Source: an uncultured delta proteobacterium (GTDB taxonomy: Bacteria; Desulfobacterota; Syntrophobacteria; BM002). From it: a DNA stretch of 64,000 nucleotides. The DNA lies in NCBI GenBank assembly GCA_963712115.1, contig CAVQGX010000031.1, forward strand, positions 128,001-192,000, written 5' to 3'. A program made the translations under genes and the position numbers. Below, piece after piece: positions 4,555 to 31,505 of the stretch. The notes beneath the pieces were generated by a model, which was given only the letters and a program-made list of their open reading frames with translations, was not told the DNA's origin and did no database searches. Every line of letters begins with the position of its first letter. The stretch's first letter is position 1.

Positions 4555-4717
4555 AATGAAAATTGATTACATGGGCGAGGTATAAACCAGGTGAAGAGTG
4601 AAGACAAATCAGCTCAACTCGCTCTCTGTGGTTTGGTGCACTGTTTAGACTTGTAAATGTTTTCGCTTGGCCCTGAGTAAGACCTCCTCATGGTGTGAAG
4701 AATGAAGGAGAAAACCA

Positions 4718-15265: not shown

Positions 15266-16922
15266 ATACTATCAGGGGTCTTTTTCCCACAGAACAAGGG
15301 CGATTAACCTCCACAGAATGCAACGGGAGGAATTTGATCTTGCCGTGATTGGCGGTGGAGTCACTGGCACTGCTATAGCTCGAGACGGTGCCTTGCGAGG
15401 CATGAAAGTAGCTCTAATTGAAAAGGGTGACTTTGCCAGCGGCACTAGCAGCAAGTCTTCCAAAATGATCCACGGCGGCTTGCGTTACTTGAAACAGTTG
15501 GACATCGGTCTGGTAAAGGAATCGCTATCCGAAAGGGAGAGACTCCTTCACCTGGCACCCCACCTGGTTCATGCAGCTCCCTATTTGATACCTATGTATT
15601 CAGGTTGGAAAGGACGGCTTGAACACCAGATTGGCCTCTTTGGCTATGACCTCTTGGCAGGCGGCAGTTCCCTTCCTCGCCATAGCGACCTGTCCAGGGA
15701 AAAAACCTTAGAAGAAGAGCCACTGTTGAGGGAAGAGAATTTATCCGGCGGATTTATCTACTACGACTGTTTGGTGAATGATGCCCGGCTCACCTTGGCC
15801 TTAATAAAGTCCGCCCACGAACACGGAGCTTTGGTGGCAAATTATACTCAAGCCATCGGATTGAACACAGACAATGAGTCCTACAAGGAAGTTCGCTTTC
15901 GAGAGGTGATCACAGGGGGAGAAGGGATCATTCGGGCCCGAGTGATAGTGGCTGCTGTGGGTCCTTGGACCAGCGAACTCTTTGAACTACACCGCCTCTC
16001 AGGCCCTACTATACGTCCAACTAAGGGTGTCCATTTGGTCTTTCCCAGAGATCGACTGCAGGTGAATAAAATTGTGGTTTTGCCCACTGCAGACAAACGT
16101 ATGATTTTCGTTGTGCCTTTGGGCCAGTTTACCTACGTTGGCACCACGGATACCGACTACTCGGGTCCACTTGATAATGTTCTGGTGGAATCTGATGACG
16201 TATCCTACCTTCTGGCTGCTTTGAACAAGTGCTTCCCATCGCTGAATCTTGGCCCAGGAGACATCTTATCCACTTGGGCCGGACTCAGACCCTTGATAAT
16301 GGAAGAGGGAGACCCCTCCAAGGTAAGCCGTGACTATTATATTGGACTGTACGACGAGGGGATCGCGGTCATAGCCGGGGGCAAACTAACTACTCATCGC
16401 ACCATGGCAGAAAGCATCATCGATCAAGTGCTGGAGCGCTATGACCATCTTTTTGACGGTGACTTCAGGCCCTGCTCCACCGGTGAAGTGCCTCTAACGG
16501 GGGGGGAGATGAAAGATTTTCCGTCCTATCTCAGGGCCCAATCTCTGGGTCTCGAAGCTGGATGGGGCCTATCTCCAACCAACGTCGAGCACCTGATCCA
16601 CAGTTACGGCAGAAATCACATGCAAATACTGGCTCTAGGCCTCCAGGACCAAAAGCTTTTAAAACCACTCGGCCCTAACTGCCGTGTGGTTAGAGCCCAG
16701 GTAATCTATGGGGTGGAGGACGAGATGGCTCTTACCCTGGAAGACTTCATGAGCAGACGAACTGACCTGCTACATTTCAACGGTGAGGCAAAGTTGGAGA
16801 AGGTGGTGGCCAAGCTTATGGCAAAACCGTTGGGGTGGAGTCGCGCCCGTCGCAGAGCTGAAATTAAAAGATATCGACAACGAGTTCATGAGATGTTCCA
16901 TTTCAGGCGAGGCTTGTCATAG
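15246..16922 (+). CDS. glpD: FAD-dependent glycerol-3-phosphate dehydrogenase/oxidase
   Basis: IGGGVTG, DFASGTSSKSSKMIHGGLRYL, KGVHL, GTTD, WAGLRPL, GGKLTT. Confidence 0.9.
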   Translation: MLRFKAKYYQGSFSHRTRAINLHRMQREEFDLAVIGGGVTGTAIARDGALRGMKVALIEKGDFASGTSSKSSKMIHGGLRYLKQLDIGLVKESLSERERLLHLAPHLVHAAPYLIPMYSGWKGRLEHQIGLFGYDLLAGGSSLPRHSDLSREKTLEEEPLLREENLSGGFIYYDCLVNDARLTLALIKSAHEHGALVANYTQAIGLNTDNESYKEVRFREVITGGEGIIRARVIVAAVGPWTSELFELHRLSGPTIRPTKGVHLVFPRDRLQVNKIVVLPTADKRMIFVVPLGQFTYVGTTDTDYSGPLDNVLVESDDVSYLLAALNKCFPSLNLGPGDILSTWAGLRPLIMEEGDPSKVSRDYYIGLYDEGIAVIAGGKLTTHRTMAESIIDQVLERYDHLFDGDFRPCSTGEVPLTGGEMKDFPSYLRAQSLGLEAGWGLSPTNVEHLIHSYGRNHMQILALGLQDQKLLKPLGPNCRVVRAQVIYGVEDEMALTLEDFMSRRTDLLHFNGEAKLEKVVAKLMAKPLGWSRARRRAEIKRYRQRVHEMFHFRRGLS

Positions 16923-17024
16923 GTTCTACTATACAGTCTACTATATCACTTTTATCTCTCGCAGAGTTCACAGAGCCACAGAGTCTAAATCTCGAAGTAA
17001 GAGGAGACAGTGGTCGACACGGTA

Positions 17025-17159
17025 GGATCACTCAAAGGCTTAGTGAGAATCCCTTGTGGCTTGGAATAAGCAAATTTATCCCATTCCACAAGGGATCCCC
17101 ACAACTACCGATGCGTTCGCATCGGTAGCCCCTGCTGCGCAGGGAACTTTGATCGATTT
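17025..17159 (+). ncRNA. ~135-nt four-way-junction structure upstream of GxxExxY (copy A)
   Basis: Outer stem GATC..CAAAG/CTTTG..GATT; CCCTTGTGG/CCACAAGGG; CTACCGATGC-GTTC-GCATCGGTAG; CCCTG-CTGCG-CAGGG. Confidence 0.6.
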
Positions 17160-17223
17160 AGGGCGCACGCTATATTATTTTTTGGGAGCTCACCGAGGAT
17201 TCTGGAGAGCACAGGGGGCACAT

Positions 17224-17601
17224 ATGGAACTGAACCAGTTGTCGTCAAAAACCATCCAAGCTGCTATAGCAGTGCATAAGGAACTTGGACCAGGTTTACT
17301 GGAGTCTGTCTATCAAGCGTGCATGCTGATAGAACTGGAGAATATGGGGATTGAAGTCGAGTCCGAAGTTTATTTACCAATTATTTACCGCGGTAAGACG
17401 ATAGAAGGCCAAGCATTCCGTTTGGATCTCGTGGTAGAGGAAAAGGTTGTCTTGGAATTAAAATCAGTAAATAAAGTGGAACCAGTACACAAGAAACAGC
17501 TTCTAACCTATTTGCGTTTAGCAAACAAGCCACTTGGGTTGTTGATAAATTTTAACGAGCCTTTGCTAAAAGAAGGGATTACAAGAATAATCAATACCTA
17601 G
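17224..17601 (+). CDS. GxxExxY protein (PD-(D/E)XK nuclease-like)
   Basis: VHKELGPGLLESVY, RLDLVVE, ELKSV, QLLTYL, GLLINFN. Confidence 0.93.
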   Translation: MELNQLSSKTIQAAIAVHKELGPGLLESVYQACMLIELENMGIEVESEVYLPIIYRGKTIEGQAFRLDLVVEEKVVLELKSVNKVEPVHKKQLLTYLRLANKPLGLLINFNEPLLKEGITRIINT

Positions 17602-17739
17602 GATTGAACCTACTAGGCGGTCATACGGTTAATATATCACTCAGAGAACTCTCTTGAACTCTGTGGGCTCTAGCGAGTGGAACGAGCGGGCGAGAGATAT
17701 ATAAATCCCAAACTAATTAAGACAGGTTGATCTAGTATT

Positions 17740-18717
17740 ATGAACAGCCGAGAAAGATTTCTGCAGACCATGCGCTATGGCAAACCCGACCGTGTGCCTT
17801 ACTTCGAGGAAGGTATTCGCAGAGAAGTTCTCAGGTCCTGGCGGAAGCAGGGTCTACCAAGGGACGCTGATATTGCCCAGATGTTTCCCTCGGACCACCG
17901 CGAAGTGATAGAATTAGACCTCGAACCCCGTCCAAAATTCAGCAAGTGGCCCACATCGCGGTCCGATTTGAAGGAACTATTTCAACGGTTGATACCCTAC
18001 GGCCGTGGCCGTTTACCCAGGGGGTGGGCAAAAAGAGTCCAAAATTGGAAAAACCGAGATCATGTGCTGATGCTAAGGATTCACCGGGGCTTTTTCCTGT
18101 CCATGGGCGTTTACGACTGGCGCAGGTTTTCAGAATTGATGGATCTGCTTCTTGATGATCCTGAATTTGTCCGCGAGGCCATGGCGATCCAAGGTAAGTT
18201 TGCAGCAGGGTTGGCGGAACGGGTGCTGAAGGATGTTGCTGTGGACGCAGTCTTGTTCAGTGAGCCCATCGGCGGCAATTACGGCCCCCTGATATCACCC
18301 CAGATGTACGAGGACATGGTACTCAGGAGCTACGAGCCGGTTCTAAATGTCCTCAATGAGTATGGGGTAGAAACCATAGTTTTTGTGACATATGCGAATG
18401 CCCGGGTGCTGGTTCCAAGTATTCTTAAGTGGGGATTTAATTGCTTGTGGGCTTGCGAGGTTAACGTTGAAACGATGGATTATCGCGATCTTCGTAAGGA
18501 GTTCGGCCGTGATTTGCGCCTGATTGGCGGTATCGATCTTGACTCCCTCAGGCGGGATAAGGAAGCAATACGGAGGGAGGTGGAGGAAAAGGTTCCACCC
18601 CTGGTTGCCGCTGGGGGCTACGTGCCCCTGGCAGACGGACGGGTCCGCTCCGATGTCCCATATGAGAATTATGTGTATTATAGGGAGCTATTGCAGAAAG
18701 TCACACATGGTCAATAG
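17740..18717 (+). CDS. uroporphyrinogen decarboxylase (URO-D/MtaA) family protein
   Basis: MNSRERF..PDRVP, GPLISP, LIGGID, GGYVP..D motifs. Confidence 0.8.
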   Translation: MNSRERFLQTMRYGKPDRVPYFEEGIRREVLRSWRKQGLPRDADIAQMFPSDHREVIELDLEPRPKFSKWPTSRSDLKELFQRLIPYGRGRLPRGWAKRVQNWKNRDHVLMLRIHRGFFLSMGVYDWRRFSELMDLLLDDPEFVREAMAIQGKFAAGLAERVLKDVAVDAVLFSEPIGGNYGPLISPQMYEDMVLRSYEPVLNVLNEYGVETIVFVTYANARVLVPSILKWGFNCLWACEVNVETMDYRDLRKEFGRDLRLIGGIDLDSLRRDKEAIRREVEEKVPPLVAAGGYVPLADGRVRSDVPYENYVYYRELLQKVTHGQ

Positions 18718-18858
18718 GTCAATACGCTGCGCTGTCACTTGTTGTCGCTAGGTCGTTATTAATGGTGATAATGAATAGCACAATTAACTACAAATGACCA
18801 TAAATGACGGGCGCAGCCCAACTGACAACGAAGCGCCCTGGCGCAAAGTGTTATGACT
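18713..18858. repeat. GTCATT/AATGAC-type imperfect inverted-repeat element, copy 1
   Basis: ACTACAAATGACCATAAATGACGGGCGC matches the reverse complement of GCGCCCGTCATTTATTGTCATTTGTAGT at ~32522-32549. Confidence 0.6.
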
Positions 18859-18895
18859 TTTGTCTGCTCCTCCGATTGATAAATTAGAGACCCAT

Positions 18896-19705
18896 ATGAG
18901 TACCAAAGGTAGTTTGTTGACAGAGGATTCTTATATCGTTGCGGCGGGCCGCAGGCTCAGAGTGAGGAAGCTCACACACCCTAATTCCGACGGTGAGGGC
19001 TCTCGACCCACTTTGGTATTTCTCCATGAGGGTTTGGGTTCTATTGAAATGTGGCATGACTTTCCGGCAATCCTGGCAGAGACCACTGCATGCGATTGTC
19101 TAATTTATGACCGCTGGGGCCACGGGAGATCCGACGCACTAGATGTACAAAGAACACTCCGCTATGTTCATCATGAGGCCTTGGACAGCTTGCCTGAGGT
19201 TCTTAACCACTCCAATGTAGATGACGCAATCCTTATCGGTCATAGCGATGGCGGTTCTATTGCTTTGATATTTGCAGCAGAATATCCCGAAATATTGCGA
19301 GGAATAATTACTGAAGCAGCCCATGTTTTTGTAGAAGAGATAACCTTGGAAGGTATCCGGGAAGCATTAGATATTTACAATAATACAGATCTCAAACAAA
19401 AGCTGGCCCGTTATCACGGAGACAAAACAGAAAAGATCTTCAGGGCCTGGCATGAGATCTGGATGCAGCCAGAGTTTAAGAGTTGGGATATTCAGGACTG
19501 CCTGCCGAAAATTAAGTGCCCCGTTTTGGTGATACAGGGAGAAGATGATCAATATGGAACTGCCGCCCAAGTAGAAGCGATAACCAATCAGGTAACTGGC
19601 CCGTCTAAGGTTCTGCTCATCCCAAATTGTGCTCATATACCTCATAGGGAGGCTAAAGACAGAGTTGCCCAGGAGATGACGGAGTTTATATTAGGGCTCC
19701 TGTAG
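18896..19705 (+). CDS. alpha/beta hydrolase
   Basis: FLHEGLGS, GHSDGG nucleophile elbow, IQGEDD, AHIPH. Confidence 0.9.
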   Translation: MSTKGSLLTEDSYIVAAGRRLRVRKLTHPNSDGEGSRPTLVFLHEGLGSIEMWHDFPAILAETTACDCLIYDRWGHGRSDALDVQRTLRYVHHEALDSLPEVLNHSNVDDAILIGHSDGGSIALIFAAEYPEILRGIITEAAHVFVEEITLEGIREALDIYNNTDLKQKLARYHGDKTEKIFRAWHEIWMQPEFKSWDIQDCLPKIKCPVLVIQGEDDQYGTAAQVEAITNQVTGPSKVLLIPNCAHIPHREAKDRVAQEMTEFILGLL

Positions 19706-19930
19706 GAATAATTCTAAACTGATTAAGACCATTGAATATCGAATGTAGAACAAGGAACCGCAGAATCATGAAGTAATCACTTCGATCCGCCTGAGGCGGA
19801 TTCGATATTCTACGGTTTAAAATAGTTTCTATAAAACCCACACTCCCCTCGGTGTTATGTGTGTGCCAAGGTCACCCGCTGGCGAGGGGATTGGGGGATT
19901 GAGTAATTGAGGGAATAAGAAGGGGAAACC

Positions 19931-20935
19931 ATGAGAAATACAAGAATTCTCGGCGTAGGAATGTATTTACCTGAGCGAGAAATCACCAACCAGAAACTCG
20001 AGGCCATGGAAGAGTTGCAAACCTCTGACGAATGGATCAGGCAGCGAACCGGCATTCTGACTCGACGCTTTGTTTCTGAAGGCCAATCAGGCACTGATCT
20101 TGCTGTGCAAGCTTCGAAGGAAGCTATCGAAAACGCTAATTTAAGCCCTGATGATATCGACTTCATCATCTATGCTACCCTCAGTCCAGACTACTTCTTC
20201 CCAGGTAATGGCTGCTTTCTGCAGGACAGGCTTTTTGGCGACCGAACAATTGGCGCTCTAGACGTCCGCACTCAATGCTCGGGCTTTATTTACAGTCTTT
20301 CCCTGGCCGACAGTTTGATCAAGACCGGCCAGTATGAACGTATACTCATTGTCGGTGCTGAGGTTCACTCCACAGCTCTGGACTTTACCTTTGCAGGTCG
20401 CGACCTAACTGTACTTTTCGGGGACGGAGCTGGGGCTGTAGTAGTGGGCCCTGCCCCCGAGGGTCACTCAGGCATTCTTGCCCACGCTCTGCATTCAGAG
20501 GGTAAGTATGCCAAGGAACTTTGGACCGAGTATCCTGCCAGCGCTCACAATCCTAGAGTCAGTCATGAAGTCCTCGATCAAGGGAGACACTATCCGCAGA
20601 TGAACGGGAGAATGGTCTTCAAACACGCGGTTACCCGCATGGTAGAGGTAAGTCACGAAGTCCTGGCTAAAGCAGGTAAAAGCATTGAGGAGGTCGATCT
20701 GTTACTTCCCCACCAGGCCAACATCCGCATCAATCAGATGGTGGCATCCCACCTGGGTATTCCCGAAGATAGGATGGTGAATACCATTTCATGGACCGGC
20801 AATACCACGGCAGCCACTATCCCCATTTGTATGTACGAAGCCCTCAGACAAGAAAAACTAAAGGACAACGATCTAGTGCTCCTCACCGCCTTCGGAGCTG
20901 GGTTTACTTGGGCAGCCTCGTTGTTGCACTGGTAG
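19931..20935 (+). CDS. fabH: 3-oxoacyl-ACP synthase III
   Basis: TSDEWIRQRTGI, QCSGF, LFGDGAGA, PHQAN, GNTTAAT, FGAGFTW. Confidence 0.92.
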   Translation: MRNTRILGVGMYLPEREITNQKLEAMEELQTSDEWIRQRTGILTRRFVSEGQSGTDLAVQASKEAIENANLSPDDIDFIIYATLSPDYFFPGNGCFLQDRLFGDRTIGALDVRTQCSGFIYSLSLADSLIKTGQYERILIVGAEVHSTALDFTFAGRDLTVLFGDGAGAVVVGPAPEGHSGILAHALHSEGKYAKELWTEYPASAHNPRVSHEVLDQGRHYPQMNGRMVFKHAVTRMVEVSHEVLAKAGKSIEEVDLLLPHQANIRINQMVASHLGIPEDRMVNTISWTGNTTAATIPICMYEALRQEKLKDNDLVLLTAFGAGFTWAASLLHW

Positions 20936-20944
20936 CAATTCTTA

Positions 20945-21020
20945 CTAGGCACTAAACACTAAGCACTAGGCACCAATAAGTACAAGAAGTAGTGCATAGT
21001 CCCTAGTGCTTAGTGCCTAG
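20945..21020. repeat. 7-bp-period inverted repeat (CACTAAG/CTTAGTG)
   Basis: CTAGGCACTAAACACTAAGCACTAGGCAC ... CTAGTGCTTAGTGCCTAG. Confidence 0.7.
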
Positions 21021-21037
21021 TTCACCGGAGTGACCTG

Positions 21038-23167
21038 ATGAGCGTTCGCTATAAATTTTTGATATTCTTCATGATATTTAGTCTTGCGCCTCTTGTCGTT
21101 GTTACCATAGTAGGCCAACGGGGAATTCTACGAATGGGTGAGACCATATCCGGTTTCGCAAAAAAGAACCGGACAGAAATCGTCAGCAAAGAACTTCAGC
21201 AAACGGCAACGGACTATGCCAAAATACTTGGCCGTGAGAAAGAAGTGCTGGAACTCACACTGAGAATCATTGCCAGAGATGCACAGCGCTTTTTGTCCGA
21301 ACCTCCGAAGGGTGCGGCGAAAGTCTATTTTGCTGACGACTACGACAACCCCGCAAAAGCTCCCAGAGATCTTGTCACTTCTCATAAGCATATCAGAGGT
21401 GCCGCTGGGGAGGGAACCGAACCAATGGTTGTGAGCTTCGGTCACCAGGTCTTTTTGGTCCGACCGGGAGCTGACTGGCGGCATGTGGCAACCGACATTG
21501 GTCGCCTGAGAAGGCTTCTTCCCTTGCACAGTGAGTTTGAGAGCCAATTGGACGACATCCTCTATTGGCAGTATGTCAGCCTGGAGAGCGGCGTTCACGC
21601 AGCCTACCCCGGCCATGGCGGCTATCCTACCGGCTACAACCCACAAACTCGTCCGTGGTATATCTTGGCCAGAGAAAGGGGTGAGTTGGCCTGGAGTACC
21701 CCGTACATAGATGCCTCCACACGTCAGGTCATCATGACTGCCTCTATGCCCATCCGTCACTCTGACGGTTCATTTGCAGGAGTAGCGGCCATCGATGTAC
21801 TTCTTTCAGAGGTTTTACAGGTCCATGAATTATCTTCTCAGTGGTCAACGGCCATGCGCTCCTTTCTCGTCTGGTCAGGGATAAAACAAGAGACCGGTGA
21901 ATACGGCCTCTGGATAATAGCTCGAAAAGACTATGTGGAACATGCCTCTGCCTGGAGCGGCGCGATGGGGGTGGAACGACTAGCATCTTCAGATGTGGAG
22001 ATCATGGAACTGATGGAGGGGGAAATAAAAGCCAGACAAGCCGGCTACATCGATATGCCTTATTTCGGCGTGGATTCTGTCTGGGCCTATGGTCACGCCG
22101 GTGATGACTTGAATCTTATACTCATCGTACCCAAAAGAATCATTTTGGAGGAGTTTGAACGGATACGAGAGTCCTTACATTCAATGGTTAAGGAACAGTG
22201 GCTGGTTACAGGGGTTGTCGCCATTGGAGTGATTCTTTTGCTTATTGTGGTTGGTCTGTGGTTCGCCCACGCCATGATCAGGCCTCTCTTCGTAATGGTT
22301 GAGGGGGTCAAGCGTCTGGCAAAGGGCGATTTCTCTGCACGAATCAATATAAACACAGGCGATGAACGCGATCTGCTGGCCAAGAGCTTCAATGAAATGG
22401 TTCCTCAGCTTGAAGACAGGATACAAATCCGTAAGTCTCTGGAAGTGGCCAAGGAAGTGCAACAAAATCTCCTGCCACAGGAGATACCAAACCTACGGGG
22501 CTTCGACATTGCTGCCAAGAGCGTCTATTGCGACGAGACTGGTGGGGATTACTTCGATTTTTTCCCGTGTGAGGACGAGCATTGCTCCCGCTTTGGCATT
22601 GTAGTCGGTGATGTCACAGGCCATGGAGTTGGAGCGGCCCTACTCATGGCCACTGCTAGAGCGCTCATCAGGGGCTTGGTAACCAGACCAGAGAACCTGG
22701 CCGAGTGTCTAACCCAGGTGAACCGTCTTCTCTCTGCCGATGTGAGGGATAGCGGCAGGTTCATGAGCCTCTTTTTTCTTATGATAGAGGAAGGCTCACC
22801 CACCATTAGCTGGGTGAGAGCCGGACACGATCCGGCTATACTCTTTGATCCCGCCAGGGAGAAAGTGGAGGAACTTGTGGGGCCAGGAATGGTCCTAGGA
22901 GTGGAGGAAGACTATTGTTACGAACAGGTTGACAAGGCTATAGAGACGGACGGAGCAGTTATTCTCATCGGCACCGACGGCATCTGGGAGGCCCACAACT
23001 CTGAGGGAGAGCTGTTCGGCAAAGACCGTCTGCACCAAATAATCCGTGACCATGCTGATAAGTCCGCCGCGGCAATCCAGGGAGCCGTCTTAGATGAAGT
23101 CAGCAAATTTCGCGGCAAACTACCTCAAGAGGATGACATTACAATTGTAGTGATCAAGACCGTGTAA
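21038..23167 (+). CDS. membrane sensor PP2C/SpoIIE phosphatase with Cache and HAMP domains
   Basis: Two TM helices, RPWY/WSTPYID Cache motif, HAMP, GGDYFD, GDVTGHG, GTDGIWE, DDITIV. Confidence 0.9.
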   Translation: MSVRYKFLIFFMIFSLAPLVVVTIVGQRGILRMGETISGFAKKNRTEIVSKELQQTATDYAKILGREKEVLELTLRIIARDAQRFLSEPPKGAAKVYFADDYDNPAKAPRDLVTSHKHIRGAAGEGTEPMVVSFGHQVFLVRPGADWRHVATDIGRLRRLLPLHSEFESQLDDILYWQYVSLESGVHAAYPGHGGYPTGYNPQTRPWYILARERGELAWSTPYIDASTRQVIMTASMPIRHSDGSFAGVAAIDVLLSEVLQVHELSSQWSTAMRSFLVWSGIKQETGEYGLWIIARKDYVEHASAWSGAMGVERLASSDVEIMELMEGEIKARQAGYIDMPYFGVDSVWAYGHAGDDLNLILIVPKRIILEEFERIRESLHSMVKEQWLVTGVVAIGVILLLIVVGLWFAHAMIRPLFVMVEGVKRLAKGDFSARININTGDERDLLAKSFNEMVPQLEDRIQIRKSLEVAKEVQQNLLPQEIPNLRGFDIAAKSVYCDETGGDYFDFFPCEDEHCSRFGIVVGDVTGHGVGAALLMATARALIRGLVTRPENLAECLTQVNRLLSADVRDSGRFMSLFFLMIEEGSPTISWVRAGHDPAILFDPAREKVEELVGPGMVLGVEEDYCYEQVDKAIETDGAVILIGTDGIWEAHNSEGELFGKDRLHQIIRDHADKSAAAIQGAVLDEVSKFRGKLPQEDDITIVVIKTV

Positions 23168-23404: not shown

Positions 23405-24688
23405 ATGGATATCAGCACAGCTGCAAAAGCCGCAAAGGCGGCTGCAATTCAATTGGCCGCCAGCGGAACTGATTTAAAAAACAAGGCACTTGAGGCAATC
23501 GCGGCCGAAATGTGGGCGCACAAAGAAAAAATCCTTGAAGCCAATGACAAGGACCTTGCCTTTAGCCGGGAAAACAACCTCGCGCAACCTCTTTTGAAGA
23601 GGCTAAAATTTGACCAGACAAAGCTTGCTGAGACGATCAGCGGGATTGAGAGCCTCATCGGCTTGCCGGACCCGGTTGGCGTGAGCCTCAGCGCCCGGGA
23701 ACTGGATGAGGGACTGGAGCTTTACCAGGTAACCTGTCCAATTGGGGTGATCGGCGTGATATTTGAATCGCGGCCTGATGCCCTGGTCCAGATTTCAACT
23801 CTTTGTCTGAAGAGCGGCAATGGAGTGCTGCTCAAGGGAGGAAGTGAGGCTGCTCACACCAATCGTGCTCTGGCTGATGTCATTGTCGCAGCGAGCGAAT
23901 CGGCAGGAATACCTGTGGGCTGGCTGCAACTGCTCGAAACCCGGGAGGACGTCAAGGAAATGCTCAAGATGGACGAGAGTATTGATCTCCTAGTTCCCCG
24001 GGGGTCAAACGAGTTTGTCAAGTTTATCATGGACAATTCCAACATTCCTGTCCTTGGGCACGCCGACGGTATCTGCCACGTCTACGTGGATAAAGAAGCA
24101 GATCTGACCATGGCAAGTAACATAGTGGTGGATTCGAAATGTCAGTACGTTGCCGTCTGCAACGCCGCAGAGACACTCCTCGTCCACGAAGCAGTGGCTC
24201 GCGACTTTCTGCCCATGCTGCAGAAAGCCCTTTCCCCCTACAAAGTGGAACTAAGAGGTTGCCCGAAAACGAGGGCGATTATCAAGGTGAAGCCCGCCAC
24301 AGAGGAGGACTGGCGCACCGAATACCTTGATACCATCATGTCAGTCAAGATTGTCACTAGCACGGATGAGGCCATAGAGCACATCAACACCTATGGTTCA
24401 GCTCACACGGATGCGATCGTCACTGCCAACCAAAATACTGCAAACCACTTCACGAACCTGGTAGATTCAGGCAATGTGTTTTGGAACTGCAGTACTCGTT
24501 TTAGTGACGGCTATCGCTACGGGCTAGGCGCCGAGGTGGGCATCAGTACCAGTAAGATCCACGCCCGCGGCCCGGTGGGATTGGAAGGTCTGGTGATCTA
24601 CAAGTGGCAAATCAGGGGTTCCGGACAAATTGTTGCGGACTATGCAGACGGGAGGCGCAAATTCACTCATCGTCCCCTTAAGAAGTAG
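23405..24688 (+). CDS. proA: gamma-glutamyl phosphate reductase
   Basis: PIGVIGVIFESRP, LKGGSEA, GICHVYVD, CNAAETLL, GAEVGISTSKIHARGP. Confidence 0.95.
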   Translation: MDISTAAKAAKAAAIQLAASGTDLKNKALEAIAAEMWAHKEKILEANDKDLAFSRENNLAQPLLKRLKFDQTKLAETISGIESLIGLPDPVGVSLSARELDEGLELYQVTCPIGVIGVIFESRPDALVQISTLCLKSGNGVLLKGGSEAAHTNRALADVIVAASESAGIPVGWLQLLETREDVKEMLKMDESIDLLVPRGSNEFVKFIMDNSNIPVLGHADGICHVYVDKEADLTMASNIVVDSKCQYVAVCNAAETLLVHEAVARDFLPMLQKALSPYKVELRGCPKTRAIIKVKPATEEDWRTEYLDTIMSVKIVTSTDEAIEHINTYGSAHTDAIVTANQNTANHFTNLVDSGNVFWNCSTRFSDGYRYGLGAEVGISTSKIHARGPVGLEGLVIYKWQIRGSGQIVADYADGRRKFTHRPLKK

Positions 24689-24694
24689 TTTGCC

Positions 24695-24742
24695 GTCCGG
24701 ATGTTTCATCAATTGAGGTCGCGAGACCATGAAATTCGGCGC
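24695..24742 (-). repeat. degenerate partial copy of the 184-bp MITE
   Basis: GTCCGGATGTTTCATCAATTGAGGTCGCGAGACCATGAA aligns to the left end of 30500-30683. Confidence 0.55.
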
Positions 24743-25014
24743 TAATATCTGCTTCTACGCCGCGGACGTTTACCTCGTGGTTCAGCTTGGTTAACCTTTA
24801 TACTGCGACCATTCAAAACCTTACCATTCAAAGCTTTGATCGCCTGGTCAGCTTCCGAGTTGTCTGGCATTTCCACAAAGCCAAACCCCTTAGGTCGTCC
24901 TGAGAACTTATCAGTGATGATTTTAACACTTGACACTTCGCCGAACTCAGAAAAGGCATTTTTCAGATCATTCTCTGTGACGTCATAGGCCAAGTTGCCA
25001 ATATACATATTCAT
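24742..25014 (-). CDS. RRM RNA-binding protein
   Basis: RNP2 MYIGNL and RNP1 KGFGFVEM. Confidence 0.95.
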   Translation of the reverse strand: MNMYIGNLAYDVTENDLKNAFSEFGEVSSVKIITDKFSGRPKGFGFVEMPDNSEADQAIKALNGKVLNGRSIKVNQAEPRGKRPRRRSRY

Positions 25015-25082
25015 AGATGCAATCCTCCATTAACACCCGTTGATTTAATTTGCACTATCAAATAATCAACGGCCCAAAAGGG

Positions 25083-25116
25083 AAAGGGCATCTCGTCTAA
25101 TCTCGGCGAGATGCCC
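25083..25116 (-). terminator. hairpin/terminator after the cold-shock gene
   Basis: GGGCATCTCGTC / GGCGAGATGCCC stem with a short T tail on the minus strand. Confidence 0.6.
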
Positions 25117-25138
25117 CCATTAAGCGTCTTACCGCCAA

Positions 25139-25339
25139 CTAAATCTTGGTGACGTTCACGGCAGCAGGACCTTTTTGGCCCTGCTCCACATTAAAAGTCA
25201 CACTGTCGCCTTCACTGAGAGATTTGAAACCCGTTGCGTTGATCCCCGAATGGTGAACGAATACATCCGGGCCATCTTCCTGCTCTATGAAGCCGTAGCC
25301 TTTGTGGTCATTAAACCACTTGACAATTCCATTAGCCAT
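25139..25339 (-). CDS. csp: cold-shock protein (CspA family)
   Basis: [27 protein letters not shown]. Confidence 0.95.
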
Positions 25340-25589
25340 AGTGACACCCTCCTTTCTAAAAAATTCTCATGGTCCCAAACTTGAGGTTGCCACTTTTGAC
25401 AGATGGATCTTCCCCCAGAACGAAACCGGGCCGCCAATAAAGACGGCCCTTTATTGATTGCTTGACGATAACCTACTTCTTCGATGGAAGTCAAATCATT
25501 TATTACTATTTCCTTCTGGAGGTAGCCATGGAAGGAGTTAATTCAGAAGTGCAGTGAGTGAGGAGAACTGGAAATTCAGTTCGATCATT

Positions 25590-25700
25590 GTGGGAGTTTA
25601 TATCCCTTAATCCACACTTCATTCCCCAAAAACCTGGCGCAACATGTAGTGCATTTCTCCAAATAGCAAGAAGTGTAGATTAAAGTATGTAATCTTCAGT
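25590..25700. repeat. recombination-site-like unit R1 (two inverted 29-bp sites around a 53-bp linker)
   Basis: GTGGGAGTTTA-TATCCCT-TAATCCACACT ... GCGCAACATGTAGTGC (25637-25652) ... AGTGTAGATTA-AAGTATG-TAATCTTCAGT. Confidence 0.8.
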
Positions 25701-26016
25701 CCGAGGGCCGATTAAGGCCTTAGATACTACCGACCTAAAAGGTAGTCATCCGAGTGTACATATGACGAGCATATGTCGAATATTCACGGATGATCAAGAC
25801 TTAACCTAAATAGCAGATATTGGAAGTCATAGATCGTAAGACTCATATACAAGAGTTAGAAATGATGGATCTAGATCTGATGAACGGAAATGGTATGGTG
25901 GGGCATTTTAAAATAATACACTGTATGTAATAGAAAAGCTGTTATCATTGGTTGCGCCACTTCTGGATCTCATTCGAATAAACACGCTAGGCTAAGTAGT
26001 AGCTGTCTGCCATCTA

Positions 26017-26721
26017 CTATTTGTATATGTCCGACAAAGGTCGCCGTCGCCTGCCACCCATGATAAGCCCCACGATCCAGCCAAACGTCATAACCCCAGC
26101 ACCGTAGAGAAACCAACGCATATTGCTGGAGGATTGCAGCTTGTCGTAAGTACTCTGCGCTTCCGCGAGCTTCGTCTTCAACTCGGGTAGCTCTGAAGCG
26201 AGCTTTTCTTGAGCTTTCTGCAGTCCCAAGTAATTTGCAGCGCCCTTTTTGAGAGCCTCGTACTTCTTGCTAGTTGCCTCTAGATTCTGCTTGAGTGAGG
26301 CCAACTCTTTCTCGATCCTTTCATTCTCTTGCCCGAGTTCTCGACTACTAGTCTCAATTTCGCTTATTTGTAACTCGAGCCGTTCTTTTTCCTTTGCTAG
26401 TTTTTCGGCAGTGAATTTCCAGGGAGGCCTGTCAGAGATATACCTCTCAAGGGTCCAACCAGTTCGACCATCAGGTAGGCTTACCTGCGCCCAACCGTTC
26501 TCTATTCCGATCATGGTTACCGTTGTACCTATTGGCAATGCAGCTATAATACGATGACTGACATCCGGCCCACTTCGAAGGATAACCTCCAGGGTGGTAT
26601 CTGAGACATAAAGTGTCTCGGCCCAGGCTTTGACGCTGAACAACCATACAGTGAGTAATACTACATGGGCAACAAGTTGAATCGCTTTTCTCAATAGTCG
26701 TCTTTTTCGATGTGTTGTCAT
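26017..26721 (-). CDS. TIGR04211/YgiM-like SH3 domain protein with coiled coil and C-terminal TM
   Basis: ETLYVSD, LRSGP, GRTGW, coiled coil, WFLYGAGV...GLI. Confidence 0.88.
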   Translation of the reverse strand: MTTHRKRRLLRKAIQLVAHVVLLTVWLFSVKAWAETLYVSDTTLEVILRSGPDVSHRIIAALPIGTTVTMIGIENGWAQVSLPDGRTGWTLERYISDRPPWKFTAEKLAKEKERLELQISEIETSSRELGQENERIEKELASLKQNLEATSKKYEALKKGAANYLGLQKAQEKLASELPELKTKLAEAQSTYDKLQSSSNMRWFLYGAGVMTFGWIVGLIMGGRRRRPLSDIYK

Positions 26722-26942
26722 TACCCTCTCACATTTCGATGACATCGCAGGCAGCACTATCCAATGACAGAACTTGATCCATTTGGAGTATGACCATAAC
26801 TCTGTAAATCGCACTATGTCAATAGCTTTAAGGATAGCGAATGAAAATCTTAAACCTTTTGTATTTCACTAATTCCTACGTTTACTTATCTTTTTGAGTC
26901 TTGACCTCATGGGTGGGCAGCATGGAGGGGTGGTGGATGCGG

Positions 26943-27053
26943 ACTTTTTATTACATCCCTTAATTCACATTTACAGTTCTAGGGAGCATAGTACTACATC
27001 TTGCGACGGGTCAAAACGGGCGTGAGTGTGGATTAAAGTAATTACTTCTTGGA
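26943..27053. repeat. recombination-site-like unit R2
   Basis: ACTTTTTATTA-CATCCCT-TAATTCACATT, 53-bp linker with GTACTACATCTTGCGA (26991-27006), AGTGTGGATTA-AAGTAAT-TACTTCTTGGA. Confidence 0.8.
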
Positions 27054-27227
27054 GGGCGGTGCGACTTTAGAGATTGTGGGAAAGTTATTACGCTAGGTAC
27101 ATCATAGTAGGTTTAGTCTTCAGAGATATGGGATACTTCAACCTCCCTTTCCTCTTTATCAGAGATGCAACATTTGCTTTGGCCGACCCATGATTAACTT
27201 GTCATCTACGCAAAACTAGTAAGAACC

Positions 27228-27863
27228 TTATTTATTGATTAGTAGGATAAGCTGATCAGCCAAATCTGGGTCAAGATCTCTTAAAATTTTATATTCTTCC
27301 AGCGCTGATGCCCGGTCACCCTTCCTCAAGTAACACAGCGCCAGAGCATGGCGCGCCTGAGCAAATCCAGGGTTGATAAAGACCGCCTTCTTTAGCACCT
27401 CCATAGCCTTATCGTTAAAGCCAAGTATATTGTATGCTATTCCTAGTCCCAGGTAACCTTGTGCAGAGGTGGGACTTAACTCGATCGTTTTCTTAAAGTA
27501 CGTCAGTGCTTCCTCCCAGTTTTCGAGCCGGGCATAGATAACACCTAAAAAAAAATGGGGCGCTGAAAAATTTGGTTTGATTGCAATAGCATCACTGAAA
27601 GCAACGATAGCTTCCTGCCAACGCCCGAGACTATAATATTTCAATCCCTGATCAACATTTATTGAGGCGAGATAAGGCAGCGTGGGAACTTCCTGCTTGG
27701 CAATCTCATGCTTTTCGCGGATCTTATGGCGTTCGGGATGAGGCGCTATAGCCTCGCAAAATGCTTCTGTAATTGAGGACTGCCAAGTAAAAAGGACAAT
27801 TAAGAGCAATAAAACTGTCTTTGTAACCCCTAAACGCGATGTTATTTGCTTTCCTGGTAACAT
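27228..27863 (-). CDS. exported tetratricopeptide repeat protein
   Basis: Signal/TM segment, then ~4 TPRs (LGVIYARL, LGIAYNIL, LALCYLRK), ending LRDLDPDLADQL. Confidence 0.85.
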   Translation of the reverse strand: MLPGKQITSRLGVTKTVLLLLIVLFTWQSSITEAFCEAIAPHPERHKIREKHEIAKQEVPTLPYLASINVDQGLKYYSLGRWQEAIVAFSDAIAIKPNFSAPHFFLGVIYARLENWEEALTYFKKTIELSPTSAQGYLGLGIAYNILGFNDKAMEVLKKAVFINPGFAQARHALALCYLRKGDRASALEEYKILRDLDPDLADQLILLINK

Positions 27864-28169
27864 TAGACCTTCTAGATTAAAACGGTGATATCACTCTTCT
27901 TGATTAGACAAAAACCATACCAATTCAAGACCGCGAATAAATTACTTGTTTTCTCCTATACTTAAGAATAATTAGGATGGCAAAAGGGTCTCAAAACCAA
28001 AGTAACTAAGTTCATAGATTTGGCATATTAGTTCCAACATTTAGAAATTTTAGGGATAGGACAGAGCAGGAAAGCTTGGACTGGCACAGGAGGGTACTCG
28101 CTAAGAATAAGAGTGGAAGAGATAGCAAATAAAGGTCATAAATGGAAACCTTATCTCACCCACTTAAAA

Positions 28170-28419
28170 ACTGAAGATTACATCCCTTAATTCACACTAT
28201 TGGCTCTAAAGACCCTAGCACAGAATGTGGTACGTGCCCCCGAAGGGGCAAAGTGTAGATTAAAGTATGTTATATGAAGTCCCACTGGAATCGTAGGAGA
28301 GTTTACATTATAACGCTGAAACTTGAATCCAAGGTAAGCTGGTCCATAGCGAGAGAATACAATATGTAGTAGTAAGGTCTCGGACGCTAAAGTTTAGATT
28401 AAAGTATGTAATGTTCACT
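28170..28419. repeat. tandem recombination-site-like units R3+R4
   Basis: R3 28170-28280: ACTGAAGATTA-CATCCCT-TAATTCACACT, 53 bp, AGTGTAGATTA-AAGTATG-TTATATGAAGT. R4 ~28295-28419: degenerate left site, ATACAATATGTAGTAG (28357-28372), AGTTTAGATTA-AAGTATG-TAATGTTCACT. Confidence 0.8.
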
Positions 28420-28625
28420 CACCACTGAAAAACCAACGAAGTTGTTAACCCCGTCCGACTGCAGCGAGTTGTTGGGCGCCAATCTACATGGCACGAATAA
28501 ATTGCGTTTTTTTATCGCTAGTTCTCAGCATGTCGTGCGTATGCTTTCTCAATAATTCAAACAAGGATGTTCCCTACCGCTTACTTACGGCAGCACGACA
28601 CTTCTAATCGCGCGAACTCATTCTG

Positions 28626-29888
28626 CTAAACAGAACTGGCGAATTTCGCCAACTTTCGCACAACCTCCAGGTCTTCAGGAATTTCTAGCACATTTTCTGC
28701 TCTAGCAAGTGCCAAGCGGGAATGGTGTATCGCGGCGTTCCGCATCTCGGCATCTCCGATCGCTGCCAGCGACTCAAACGCCTTTTGTAGCCGCCCCGCG
28801 ACTTCAATGGCACCAGCCCCGTCACGAGCAATCGCTGTGAAGGCATCATCAAACATGTCCCGCAAAGATATTTTGGGCACCTCCACGCGATCACATTCAG
28901 AAATTCGTGTGTCGCCTTCTTCGATAGGCTCACTCCAGAGCGCAAAAAGTCGCACGAACGTTCCAATAATGACGATTGCCGTACCGGGATCATTGACAGC
29001 AGGTGACAACGCTCGACTTGCGATTTCAGAAAGAACGATAAGACCGAATCGAGGATCTTCGTCGAATTGTCTGTCATTACCGAGCACAAATGCCTGTGCT
29101 ATCTGACTTGCATCGATATCAGAAAAATCACCTGAGTCTGCGGTCACATAGGCAAGAGCCCGGCCCGGCGCAGAAAAAGTACCGGGCAAGGCTGCTACCG
29201 TGATTCGTACCCGCGATTTTTCCGCATACGTCTGTAGCGCAGTGACATCTACGCGCTGTACATATCCGATCGACCCGCTGTAAATGGCGTGACCCCTATT
29301 CTGACGCCACCCCGCAGGGACGCCGCAAAGGGTAGGTGCGCATCGCCTTCGCTGTAAAGCAGCAGCAGTCGCTGCCTCAACCTTATCGATGGTTCCCCTG
29401 AGGCGCCCAAGGCGTGCGATGCGATCCACCCAACTCACGAACGTAATAATAACCATGGCAAGAATCATTAACGTTAGAGCAAATAACGCGAAACGGCCTG
29501 CTCTATCGTAATAGCCATTCTTTAAGGCGATAAGCGCGACGATGCTGAAGATGAAGGCACCAATAAAGGTCGAGAGAGCGTTCTGGGAAACGTCGTCGGA
29601 GATGACCAGAGAAAAAGAGCGCGGCGTTGCGGTGCTGCTGGCCGAAGCATAGGCGGAAACCATCGATGCGACAGCAAAGGTGGCGATCACCAACATGCTT
29701 GCGGAAATAATGGTAAGCAGGGTCTCTATTGAGTCTGGAGTAATCGCCGGAACAAGCTGACCGATTTCGGTATTGTCCACCGTCTTCGCAAGGAACACTA
29801 AGCCCGTTGACAGCACGCACATCGCGAGAGGCCTGACCCATAGCCGCTCTCTGATGCGGTTTAGAAGGAACCTCAATCGATCACCCAT
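28626..29888 (-). CDS. DUF2254 family membrane protein
   Basis: ATPRSF, FIGAFIFS, DPRFGLIVLSEIASRALSPAVNDPGTA, IARDGAG. Confidence 0.9.
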   Translation of the reverse strand: MGDRLRFLLNRIRERLWVRPLAMCVLSTGLVFLAKTVDNTEIGQLVPAITPDSIETLLTIISASMLVIATFAVASMVSAYASASSTATPRSFSLVISDDVSQNALSTFIGAFIFSIVALIALKNGYYDRAGRFALFALTLMILAMVIITFVSWVDRIARLGRLRGTIDKVEAATAAALQRRRCAPTLCGVPAGWRQNRGHAIYSGSIGYVQRVDVTALQTYAEKSRVRITVAALPGTFSAPGRALAYVTADSGDFSDIDASQIAQAFVLGNDRQFDEDPRFGLIVLSEIASRALSPAVNDPGTAIVIIGTFVRLFALWSEPIEEGDTRISECDRVEVPKISLRDMFDDAFTAIARDGAGAIEVAGRLQKAFESLAAIGDAEMRNAAIHHSRLALARAENVLEIPEDLEVVRKLAKFASSV

Positions 29889-30250
29889 TACTCCACTTCC
29901 CGTAGTTCGGTATGACGGTCCGCTACAGATCTCTTTTCCGGTGGTCAAATTAGTCGGCAGGAATCCTTTTCGCATGTAGAGTTCTACAGTGCATGTTGAT
30001 TATTACTAACATCTGTTTAGGTAGAAAGCAAACGTTTACCACTCTTGACGCCCAACCTTGAATTATACGGCGTATTATCCGCTTTATAATGCGGAAAGTC
30101 TCATACGCATATCGTAAATTGTGAAAAAATACAGCTACTTGTTTGATAACACTCACGATATTGAAAACGAAAAATATCGAAACCGACATCCGCTCTGATC
30201 ACAACCAAAAATACCCGGACAGACTTCCGCAAGAAAAGGGCCATTGCAAA

Positions 30251-30490
30251 ACTATAAATTACATCCCTTAATTCCCACTCCCGGCGTTGACGAGTCTAGC
30301 ACGAAATATGGGGGTCGTTCAACAAGGGGCCCACTTACGTGTGGATCGAGTTATATAAAGTTTCCTATTGGTTTGCTAGGAGTAAACATAACATCCCTTA
30401 ATTTAAACTTGACCGGAGGTTCATTCTACACAATATGTTGAGAGTAGTAATGTCCGGACACTTTAGGGGGATTAACTGCTGATTTAATAA
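30251..30490. repeat. tandem recombination-site-like units R5+R6
   Basis: R5: ACTATAAATTA-CATCCCT-TAATTCCCACT ... CGTGTGGATCG-AGTTATA-TAAAG. R6: AGTAAACATAA-CATCCCT-TAATTTAAACT, ACACAATATGTTGAGA (30428-30443), degenerate right site GGGGGATTAA. Confidence 0.75.
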
Positions 30491-30499
30491 ATATGTACT

Positions 30500-30683
30500 T
30501 AGCCCGGATATTTCATGAATTGCTGTTGCGAGACCGTGAAGATGGGCGTGCCACCTGGCAACCGCAGCGTGTTGGTTCCGAGGCGTACCTGAAAGGTACG
30601 TCGCAGGGACCGACACCCGAGGACGCCAGGAAGGACGGCCATATCCGCGGTCGCAGCAGGTGATTCATGAAATATCCGGGCTA
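30500..30683 (-). mobile_element. 184-bp MITE-like element, copy 2 (inverted relative to copy 1)
   Basis: Same 21-bp TIRs and length as 4276-4459; interior is its reverse complement with scattered substitutions. Confidence 0.85.
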
Positions 30684-30740
30684 GTGTTTAGTGCCAGGTT
30701 GAAATAGCTGCCCGCTGTCTGCTGCCTGCTGGGTGAGTGC

Positions 30741-31337
30741 CTAGTGTTCTCCAAACCCCGCCCTTTGCACCAACGCACTTACCACGGACTCATACAGCTC
30801 TCTGCTGCCAGTGAGAAGCTGTTCTAGTCTGTCTTGATACTCATTCCTCTCGGGAGATGCTTCCATGAGACTGAGATTGGCTTGAGCAATTCGATGAGCA
30901 CCACTTATCGTGGCCCTTAGGAGCTCACAGACAACCAAAAGATCTGAAAGTAGATGGCCCTTACAGTGCACCCCCGCCCTGGCCACGAAATTGACGGCTT
31001 CATTGGCCTCTTCCATTATGCTAATGGGGCATTCGATTGCCTGCTGCAGCGCCTCCAAGACCTCTGTCTTGCCTTTTCCGAAGGTCTTGGCCTGGGCAAA
31101 ACGCGCATAGGCCCTGCCGTCTTCATCACGGAGATGGAGAAGAGTACTCAATGATTTTTTCACCTCCTGGAGCAAATTCCTCCATTCAGCTTCAGAGGAG
31201 TCGCGGCTACGCTGAAGTTCCACCTGAACGATTTTTTCTAGCAGCGCCAAACCCACACATGCCCCATGGGCTGCTGCGGCACCGCCTCCGGGCACAGGAT
31301 ACGGTCTGGCAAGAGCGTCTATGAACGAATCAACCAT
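30741..31337 (-). CDS. cyclodeaminase/cyclohydrolase (FTCD C-terminal) family protein
   Basis: FIDALA..PVPGGGAAAA, DEDGRAY, AIECP, LLSDL. Confidence 0.85.
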   Translation of the reverse strand: MVDSFIDALARPYPVPGGGAAAAHGACVGLALLEKIVQVELQRSRDSSEAEWRNLLQEVKKSLSTLLHLRDEDGRAYARFAQAKTFGKGKTEVLEALQQAIECPISIMEEANEAVNFVARAGVHCKGHLLSDLLVVCELLRATISGAHRIAQANLSLMEASPERNEYQDRLEQLLTGSRELYESVVSALVQRAGFGEH

Positions 31338-31505
31338 AATTTCCTTCCCGGGCCATCACCTATGATGTTTGACTGCATTGTTGTTAATGCTTATCAGAGA
31401 TTAACTTATGGATACAGCAAAATATTAATTATTGGTGATTCTCTTTGATTGCCAGAGAATACAAAATACCGGGTAAAATATCATATCGAAAAAGGAGTCT
31501 CGAAT

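Follow-up and report, generated by a model that had tools for sequence, protein, structure and literature searches.

A dispersed family of two-spacer, tyrosine recombinase-type sites at the joints of gene modules in an uncultured marine-sediment deltaproteobacterium

Results and Discussion

A short array of repeat units separating single genes lies between positions 25,590 and 30,490 of a 64,000-nt stretch of DNA from an uncultured delta proteobacterium (assembly GCA_963712115.1, contig CAVQGX010000031.1). This stretch, hereafter the window, corresponds to G000:C31:128001-192000, where G000 is the source genome, C numbers denote contigs and a window coordinate equals the C31 coordinate minus 128000. 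We found that the units belong to a large family of sites with the core layout used by tyrosine recombinases, that these sites fall into two spacer classes, A and B, and that the genes between them form a mosaic whose joints lie at the sites. The best-supported reading is a non-integron shuffling platform resembling the plasmid dif (pdif) modules of Acinetobacter, as a sequence-only reading of the window had proposed, once that proposal is corrected for a dispersed family, three spurious sites and an embedded fragment of an integron. Judging from comparison of the sequences, we lean towards A and B being site-specific recombination sites whose exchange would shuffle gene modules, and we hold with less certainty that a small XerA-like enzyme would be the catalyst.

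Site anatomy and spacer classes

The B site reads AGTGTGAATTA-AGGGATG-TAATnnnnAnT, and the A site has the same arms around the spacer AAGTATG in the opposite orientation. Logos built from 95 B and 55 A sites revealed a strongly conserved inner arm and spacer, then TAAT opening the outer arm, four variable bases and a conserved A.T; conservation stops right after GTAAT, with the A and T retained at outer-arm positions +5 and +7. Because the outer arm of the A site mirrors the B-site pattern, each site is an 11-7-11 near-palindrome, which is the layout of a tyrosine recombinase core site. A spacer-agnostic scan returned 202 matches, compared with 40 for a reversed-arm control, and the spacers were dominated by AGGGATG (72) and AAGTATG (33), with 13 and 15 reverse-strand readings of these, respectively, and at most three of each hybrid. 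From these bimodal counts and the rarity of hybrids we concluded that there are two discrete spacer classes, differing at two of seven positions and each tied to one orientation. The scan and the logos therefore bear out the core-site architecture with two spacer classes that had been read from the window, and the rule that the spacer is fixed by position holds genome-wide.

Within the window, a reading of positions 25400-30700 together with a repeat finder recovered all six related repeat units that had been claimed, R1 to R6 (Table 1). Twelve 29-bp sites had been proposed in them, and nine of these were recognised when 22-nt half-site strings were scanned over the whole genome at up to four mismatches, while the left site of R4 and the right sites of R5 and R6 were unrecognisable. 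The nine comprise five B sites, whose plus-strand reading is ..ATTA-CATCCCT-TAATTCACACT, and four A sites, reading AGTGTAGATTA-AAGTATG-TAAT... On the gene-sense (minus) strand a unit thus runs from the A site (outer arm, CATACTT, TAATCCACACT) through a linker to the B site (AGTGTGAATTA, AGGGATG, outer arm). The 53-bp linker described for R1-R3 was found as such, with the 22-mers spanning 97 nt from outer edge to outer edge, and so was the single minus-strand gene between units (SH3_3, TPR and DUF2254). What had been called R4 consists of a lone A site and, fused to it, one half of a canonical attC; the supposed left half of R4 is a flank that recurs upstream of another unit. The SH3_3 gene has paralogues at G000:C9 (83.5% identity) and G005:C238 that share its downstream unit, and the G006 homologue of the TPR gene (82.6% identity) likewise has a B site before it. 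In Rfam the whole window gave no match at the gathering threshold, and positions 25500-30750 gave none at E up to 1.

Table 1. Features of the array region, in window coordinates
Feature	Position	Strand	Details
Source-genome-specific segment between conserved aldehyde dehydrogenase and FTCD genes	24684..30749		From comparison with genomes of the genus
Unit R1	25590..25700	-	B 25597-25618 (3 mismatches, spacer ATATCCCT variant), 53-bp linker, A 25672-25693
Gene module 1, SH3_3-domain protein with coiled-coil region	26017..26814	-	
Unit R2	26943..27053	-	B 26950-26971 (1 mismatch), A 27025-27046 (3 mismatches, degenerate spacer)
Gene module 2, TPR protein	27228..27863	-	
Unit R3, best copy	28170..28280	-	B 28177-28198 (0 mismatches), A 28252-28273 (2 mismatches)
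Lone A site (right half of "R4")	28391..28419	-	No B partner; loop of a truncated canonical attC serves as outer arm
R''-L''-loop half of a canonical attC	28413..28477	-	R'' GCCCAAC at 28471-28477; L'-R' half missing
DUF2254 membrane protein gene	28626..29975	-	Integron-type cassette ~28471-30056
attI-like remnant and part of intI-attI spacer	30030..30250	-	Core ..ACGCCGTATAATTCAAG, then GTTGGGC; intI absent
Unit R5	30251..30366	-	B 30258-30279 (1 mismatch); proposed right site unrecognisable
Unit R6	30381..30490	-	B 30388-30409 (3 mismatches); proposed right site unrecognisable

Distribution in the genome and the genus

The array had been taken for a platform belonging to this locus. It is instead one small member of a family of about 150 sites spread over the source assembly, which comprises 4.9 Mb in 70 contigs. 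The left-half motif occurred there in 39 exact copies and in 155 at up to four mismatches, and an iterated nhmmer profile returned 328 matches, counting both strands, on 38 of the 70 contigs. At up to four mismatches the genome holds 96 B and 55 A sites. Most are single, many being a lone B or a lone A, and the 24 paired units comprise 15 that span 96-97 nt and nine that span 151-154 nt. This abundance of single sites argues against an obligatory folded substrate. The sites lie mostly in co-oriented arrays, often at contig ends (for example C3:106-128 kb, C36:7-30 kb and C42:2-18 kb). An 18-nt core occurred 86 times in the source genome compared with no occurrence of a reversed control, which is far beyond chance, and it was present in all 18 genomes of our genus comparison (1 to 86 matches each; reversed control 0-1) and in one other genus of the family. 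The 21 sequencing runs listed as containing the stretch, on the basis of Logan contigs, are marine-sediment and estuary metagenomes.

Two further observations concern the units themselves. An insertion sequence (IS) of the IS110 family (DEDD_Tnp_IS110 and Transposase_20) lies in three units of the source genome (C36:18372-19663, ~C42:17052-18343 and ~C41:2040-3328), and its insertion point is identical in all three, inside the inner arm of the B site between ..AAGTG and GTGTGAATTAAGGG... The element is specific for these sites, as some IS families are for attC or pdif sites. Units of the ~150-bp class (for example G000:C36:25982-26134) contain a bidirectional intrinsic terminator (AAAATGCGGAG..CTCCGCTTTTTT) between two CAAYATCTTG motifs, and this terminator is absent from the 97-nt class, which includes R1-R3.

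Module mosaicism

Evidence that modules have been reshuffled came from pairs of sites whose flanks are alike on one side only. Twenty pairs of B sites had more than 80% identity on at least one side, ten of them downstream only, six upstream only and four on both sides; several pairs involve the same loci, and the one-sided pairs reduce to six and six independent groups. Fourteen of the 16 one-sided pairs were read base by base, and all 14 break inside or at the end of the 22-mer. In those shared upstream, identity extends over the gene and the variable linker into the B site and is lost after ..GGGATGT.AT, while in those shared downstream identity begins within the 22-mer. All seven informative A-site pairs were one-sided (four upstream, three downstream). 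Five of these break within the 22-mer, at or near the step from ..ATTACATACTT to TAAT.., and the other two (C13/C3 and C34/C36) return to near-identity only at ~30-50 nt into the unit. Taken together, the 21 breaks inspected all coincide with or lie close to an A or B site: 19 are within the 22-mer, the other two are up to ~50 nt inside the unit, and none of the 21 fell in the similarly conserved sub-terminal motif near the opposite unit end. The positions at which self-BLAST segments terminate are similarly concentrated, with segment ends piling up at -3 to +1 and segment starts at -28 to -3 relative to the last T of GTAAT.

The mosaic is also apparent at the level of single units and whole modules. 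The unit at C4:8698 has its upstream side in common with C2:94994 and its linker and downstream side in common with C3:106031. When modules were defined as the intervals between consecutive B sites (n = 55; median 1,608 nt, range 495-5,745), one module of 772 nt occurred in three places, behind a different upstream neighbour each time, with 98-99% identity along the entire module, and several other module matches start at base 1-5 or end at the last base of the module. The one-sided pairs and the 772-nt module in three contexts thus support the proposal that units are the joints of reshuffled modules, and this comparative evidence (16 B and 7 A one-sided pairs) fits what is seen with dif modules, which occur in various contexts with crossovers at sites of like spacer.

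Locus variability and cargo

Comparison with the genus showed where the variable segment lies, in that homology to the aldehyde dehydrogenase gene ends at window position 24683 and homology to the FTCD gene begins at 30750. In G006 and G016 the same flanking genes enclose 433 bp with a different small open reading frame (ORF) and the array is absent, and in G012 an orthologous R6-like B site stands beside the FTCD gene with a thiolase-like gene, and so different cargo, beyond it. Variation of cargo at this locus, which the sequence-only reading had anticipated, is therefore seen in all three genomes relative to the source genome.

Twenty larger array ORFs were annotated for their cargo functions. 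They include signalling proteins (GGDEF-PAS, PilZ, FHA, cyclase-TPR and LuxR-type regulators), envelope proteins (OmpA, LysM, AMIN and PKD), enzymes (aminotransferase, KAS III, GDSL lipase, sulfatase, and caspase-like and HtrA-like peptidases) and two transposases. At six array loci, 61 mechanically called ORFs of at least 70 aa run with the array and 23 against it. Homologues of the SH3 and TPR cargo genes were found at nine loci, of which four have adjoining sites (up to five mismatches), four are without any, and one, G000:C66, has only a weak B site 1.8 kb away; this survey neither proves nor disproves capture. The source-genome-specific segment also contains a csp gene (window 25083-25537) and a gene for an RRM protein (24742-25014). 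The cold-shock gene region recurs in many copies at 80-91% identity in the source and other genomes of the genus, and one copy, at G005:C143, lies ~150 nt from a B site.

A candidate recombinase and its element

The sequence-only reading had the recombinase encoded elsewhere, and a candidate is indeed present in a XerA-like gene of 262-278 aa that has A and B ends in sister genomes. Twelve Phage_integrase matches were listed in the source genome, and a simple recombinase of 278 aa is encoded there at C3:1094-1927; it was found in seven of the 18 genus genomes. The protein carries the R..HxxR..H..Y residues and consists of a Phage_integrase domain with a weak SAM-like N-terminal domain. Its scores against recombinase family models were all below cut-off, the best being recomb_XerA_Arch at 119 bits (cut-off 220), followed by XerC at 58 (335) and XerD at 55 (330), and its best match among solved structures is XerA (4a8e).

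In G006 the order on the gene strand is outer arm, CATCCCT, TAATTCACAT, ~180 nt, the recombinase gene, ~66 nt, AGTGGGGATTA, AAGTATG and outer arm, so that the inner arms of the B and A ends face the gene. Two distinct copies of the gene in G005 are enclosed by the same pair of ends, which makes three contigs from two sister genomes, and in G011 and G018 an A end lies 190-196 nt downstream of the gene. Since the gene occupies the position of the unit linker between the inner arms, and since the sub-terminal motifs are shared as well, the units look like miniature versions of an element of ~1.1 kb. This fits a feature of miniature inverted-repeat transposable elements (MITEs), namely that both termini are held in common with a longer, enzyme-coding element (here the G006 and two G005 copies).

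Over the class, the recombinase family was found in 31 of 122 genomes with a patchy, multi-copy distribution in which many copies are broken. Of the seven copies in one genome, the six that were retrieved have ~0.96-1.10 kb in common at 82-94% identity, except for one pair with 99.96% identity over 2.4 kb. This is the behaviour of a mobile element. Metagenomic homologues numbered 4,249, many of them on contigs of 1.0-1.2 kb, and were named only as "integrase/recombinase XerD" or "site-specific integrase". A plasmid collection gave no DNA match to the 1.09-kb element, and its protein matches were all below 30% identity.

Two larger integrases encoded near arrays were considered as the dedicated enzyme and rejected for their sporadic occurrence, one of 337 aa (C46-type) that is present in one of the 18 genus genomes and one of 411 aa (C39/C11-type) that is present in four. 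The latter is represented in the source genome by paralogous phage-type genes at C39:10742-11977 and C11:84757-85995, the C11 copy containing a stop. Each is preceded by a small ribbon-helix-helix-like ORF and stands, divergently oriented, at the upstream end of a unit array; given their presence in four genomes only, they are probably part of a separate integrated element.

The integron of the source genome and the embedded fragment

The array had been described as something other than an integron, which is correct for the units themselves, although a fragment of an integron does lie inside the array. The source genome has a true IntI at C27:2350-3303(+) (TIGR02249, 487 bits with a cut-off of 265), whose nearest named relatives are "MAG: Deltaproteobacteria bacterium" records. 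In the region C27:1-3303, with attI at ~2085-2230, minus-strand cassettes for small membrane proteins lie directly upstream of intI and are separated by a canonical attC of ~118 bp that has CCTAAC...GTTAGG as its ends and is present three times in full and once as a half, and the contig begins inside an attC. Relatives with IntI proteins 93% and 85% identical have the same canonical attC beside the gene and no units there, such that the IntI-proximal arrays of all three genomes hold canonical attC only. The units, in contrast, have in their logos the ends ATTAC/GTAAT rather than AAC/GTT, and IntI was found in four of the 18 genus genomes compared with sites in all 18. Based on the different ends, the different IntI-linked attC family and the restricted distribution of IntI, we concluded that the units are not the attC sites of the integron. 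As to the palindromic nature of attC, the 24 paired units can be compared, R3 folding as an imperfect DNA hairpin (-15.1 kcal/mol, z -2.7), whereas most of the ~150 sites are without a partner.

Window positions 30030-30285 align with the intI-attI spacer of C27 and are near-identical to it around the attI core. GTTGGGC at its beginning and the complementary R'' GCCCAAC at its end identify the DUF2254 cassette as a genuine integron cassette, situated at an attI remnant. The attC of this cassette is interrupted in its loop, where the outer arm of the lone "R4" A site is joined on, and unit R5 stands in place of the intI gene beside the attI remnant. In three runs a 1648-nt unitig over 28443-30091 breaks at both ends. 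The source genome contains seven orphan attC halves, every one of them fused with an A site at one and the same point of the loop and none of them an L'-R' half, and a B site abuts an attI-like region also at C27:119 kb and C54:8.6 kb.

Proposed mechanism

In the mechanism that we propose, a unit would be a short non-coding module whose two ends are 29-bp core-type sites, inverted relative to each other, at which a simple (Xer-like) tyrosine recombinase acts. Because its A and B ends differ only in the spacer (AAGTATG versus AGGGATG), A x B recombination would be blocked while A x A and B x B recombination between copies would be permitted, and exchange at like sites could then swap, excise or insert the intervening DNA. 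Gene modules, with outer arms pointing inward, would alternate with unit modules, with inner arms pointing inward, as C and D modules do in dif-module plasmids; where an A site is missing, the gene would have a B site in direct repeat on either side and could be released as a circle. The units may be miniature derivatives of the ~1.1-kb element that carries the XerA-like recombinase gene between the same ends, and this recombinase, acting in trans, appears the most likely catalyst. As a wider and tentative picture, the whole could be a self-contained, integron-independent cassette system in which a ~1.1-kb element with a homodimeric Xer-like enzyme gave rise to miniatures that seeded ~150 docking sites, genes are exchanged between arrays and species, integrons are invaded (attC loops cut, intI replaced) and an IS110-family element acts as a site-specific parasite.

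Several observations weigh against this reading. Outer arms covary neither with those of their own partner nor with those of the upstream neighbour, the mean 7-nt match being 3.40/7 (n=20) and 3.27 (n=37), respectively, near the all-against-all value of 3.24, so that this comparison discriminates poorly. Breaks inside conserved 22-mers could also be expected from homologous recombination between repeats, and several cargo homologues in other genomes are without nearby sites. No recombination product, circle or inversion was seen in the Logan contigs of four runs placed on window positions 24500-31500. The recombinase poses difficulties of its own: it was found in seven of 18 genus genomes though all 18 have sites, leaving 11 site-bearing genomes without a match; its copies in the source genome and G018 have degenerate flanks; two closed genomes with 12-16 sites are without it; distant copies had no A or B sites (20 further loci) and no convincing flanking inverted repeats (6 loci); and the sub-terminal motif stands ahead of the B spacer in units (15 of 17 motif matches), as opposed to the A spacer in the three gene-carrying elements. 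We nevertheless argue for site-specific exchange because of the site architecture, the lack of breaks close to the opposite unit end and in the sub-terminal motif there, and the discrete spacer classes. Contig joints at units (for example 25603>30395 and 26972>28389) were given no weight either for or against excision, their short sides of 22-44 nt coming from other repeat copies.

Alternative explanations

The alternative nearest in kind, which we consider doubtful, is a true dif-module system in which the A and B sites serve the housekeeping XerC and XerD of the host as additional dif-like sites and the small XerA-like gene counts as one more piece of cargo. XerC- and XerD-like genes are present, the architecture fits the alternation of C and D modules, and such a system would account for the persistence of sites in the 11 genomes without a match to the small recombinase. 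The resemblance to a XerD arm noted in the sequence-only reading is real if modest, with 7 of 11 positions agreeing between the consensus arm and the XerD-side arm of the host dif candidate, and 9 of 11 for some arm variants, TAATCTAAACT among them. That candidate, AGTCTGATAA-TGTATA-TTATGTAAACT, is single-copy in 16 of the 18 genus genomes and has an 11-6-11 layout with asymmetric arms, in contrast to the 7-bp spacer of the near-symmetric units, whose two near-identical arms suggest a homodimeric enzyme, and the small recombinase gene lies in the unit position between inner arms in three contigs, where cargo genes were never found. We regard it as quite unlikely that a transposase (Y1/RAYT, DDE or other) has spread the units as selfish repeats of the MITE or REPIN kind, with the mosaic arising from homologous recombination between copies and the arrays from accumulation in a flexible region. 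The units are indeed short, non-coding, multi-copy and genus-specific with inverted ends, the source genome has four Y1_Tnp genes, and the breaks within 22-mers would follow from homologous recombination as noted above. The flanks of the units are inverted (A.T....ATTA / TAAT....A.T) rather than direct, so no target duplication was seen, and none of the four Y1_Tnp genes is flanked by repeats in the manner of RAYT genes, two being on contigs without unit sites, one on C48 at 2.2 kb from the nearest site (up to four mismatches) and one on C20 at ~12 kb from a weak match. Nor would such a repeat account for the position of all 21 breaks at or near an A or B site with none in the opposite sub-terminal motif, for the retention of lone A and lone B sites or for the two discrete spacer classes.

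Two other explanations seem to us highly improbable. If the units were a variant attC used by the IntI of the genome, the arrays would be clusters of attC sites without an integrase (CALINs), for which one can cite the bona fide IntI, the co-oriented and mostly single genes with a repeat 3' of each, the imperfect palindromes formed by paired units and the half attC sites fused to units; the different canonical attC of the IntI-side array, the ATTAC/GTAAT ends, the excess of single sites over paired units and the presence of sites in 14 genomes more than IntI all speak against it. Scarcely any more credible is the idea that the units are not sites of mobility and serve regulation between genes, as terminators or invertible switches. 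Invertible promoters have inverted-repeat ends, as the units do, the ~150-bp class contains the bidirectional terminator and the units sit 3' of ORFs. This explanation has to contend with the lack of a terminator in the 97-nt class, with a unit interior whose orientation is nearly fixed (15 of 17 motif matches point one way) and with A and B spacers whose two differences in seven positions should hinder inversion, and it leaves the module mosaicism unexplained. A regulatory role may coexist with mobility.

Relation to known systems

The dif modules of Acinetobacter Rep_3 plasmids have inversely oriented pdif sites with alternating C and D modules, and two successive recombinations replace single modules (PMC13141974); further features described are rearrangement only between sites of the same spacer, some modules without an ORF and an IS that targets the sites (PMC13141974, PMC10132070). 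Within what these sources describe, the pdif analogy drawn by the sequence-only reading fits our architecture well, since A and B sites are mutually inverted and alternate between two module types, and the likeness extends to single-gene modules in various contexts, rearrangement confined to same-spacer sites, modules without an ORF and an IS that targets the sites. In contrast to dif modules, the sites here are chromosomal, number ~150 per genome in an uncultured marine-sediment "Deltaproteobacteria" lineage, and have an 11-7-11 layout with near-identical arms as opposed to the 11-6-11 of the host dif. There are also only two spacer classes, tied to orientation, and the modules corresponding to D are mostly non-coding units of 85-140 bp, a position occupied by the recombinase gene in sister genomes.

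Integron cassettes and CALINs share with the arrays their mostly co-oriented single genes with an imperfect palindrome of ~100 bp at the 3' side, a joint at one end of the repeat and a cargo drawn from a variable accessory gene pool. Unlike them, the units have no AAC/GTT core and are unlinked to intI or attI, many sites are simple double-strand-type sites without a palindromic partner, and the real integron of the genome has another attC family. MITEs and REPINs are likewise short, non-coding and multi-copy with inverted ends, here held in common with a gene-carrying element of ~1.1 kb, but the unit ends are complete tyrosine recombinase core sites without visible target duplication, the partner gene encodes a tyrosine recombinase rather than a DDE or Y1 transposase, and the copies mark module joints. 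In recombinase-mediated cassette exchange with Cre/lox or Flp/FRT, a segment is flanked by site variants whose only difference lies in the spacer, and like x like exchange proceeds without inversion or loss. The arrangement here also has two spacer-only variants flanking a segment, and differs in being natural, repeated about a hundred-fold and putative. Given that dif resemblance and plasmid context, the attC core, target duplications and repeat-flanked RAYT genes are all lacking, we consider this a dif-module-like system that is a member of none of these families.

To our knowledge, just two natural systems are well known to accumulate and reshuffle single genes through site-specific recombination, namely integrons and the dif modules of Acinetobacter plasmids, the latter being still poorly understood. 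If our reading is true, the sites described here would form a third such system, one that is chromosomal and high-copy, belongs to an environmentally abundant uncultured sediment lineage and has a plausible dedicated recombinase. It would also be a natural case of cassette exchange with heterospecific spacers, and the candidate recombinase and its site (~270 aa and 29 bp) would form a compact pair that is directly testable. The attC and attI fusions would represent two cassette systems colliding in one genome. This result may have implications for annotation as well, in that it would explain the assembly breaks at arrays in the genus and would mean that arrays of attC-like repeats should not be taken for integron remnants by default. 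A literature search found no description of the repeat or of a single-recombinase element with such miniature copies, supplementary datasets (for example that of PMC8138268) being outside the search.

Other observations

The host dif candidate lies at G000:C43:75937-75963, and a second site with the same arms and the spacer TTAATC is found at C49:23172. This TTAATC-spacer site occurs in G000, G016 and G002, where in G002 it is 8.6 kb from dif and inverted, and it may mark a Xer-dependent integrated element.

A miniature element of 185 bp with perfect 21-bp terminal inverted repeats and TA at both ends occupies window positions 30500-30684. Contigs of three of the four runs join 30498 to 30681 without it, and it is also absent at this spot in G012. 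Dozens of copies per genome, at 92-95% identity, are present in all 18 genus genomes, and in one run (X1) the unitig depth of the element reaches 16,000-23,000 compared with ~68 for the adjoining sequence.

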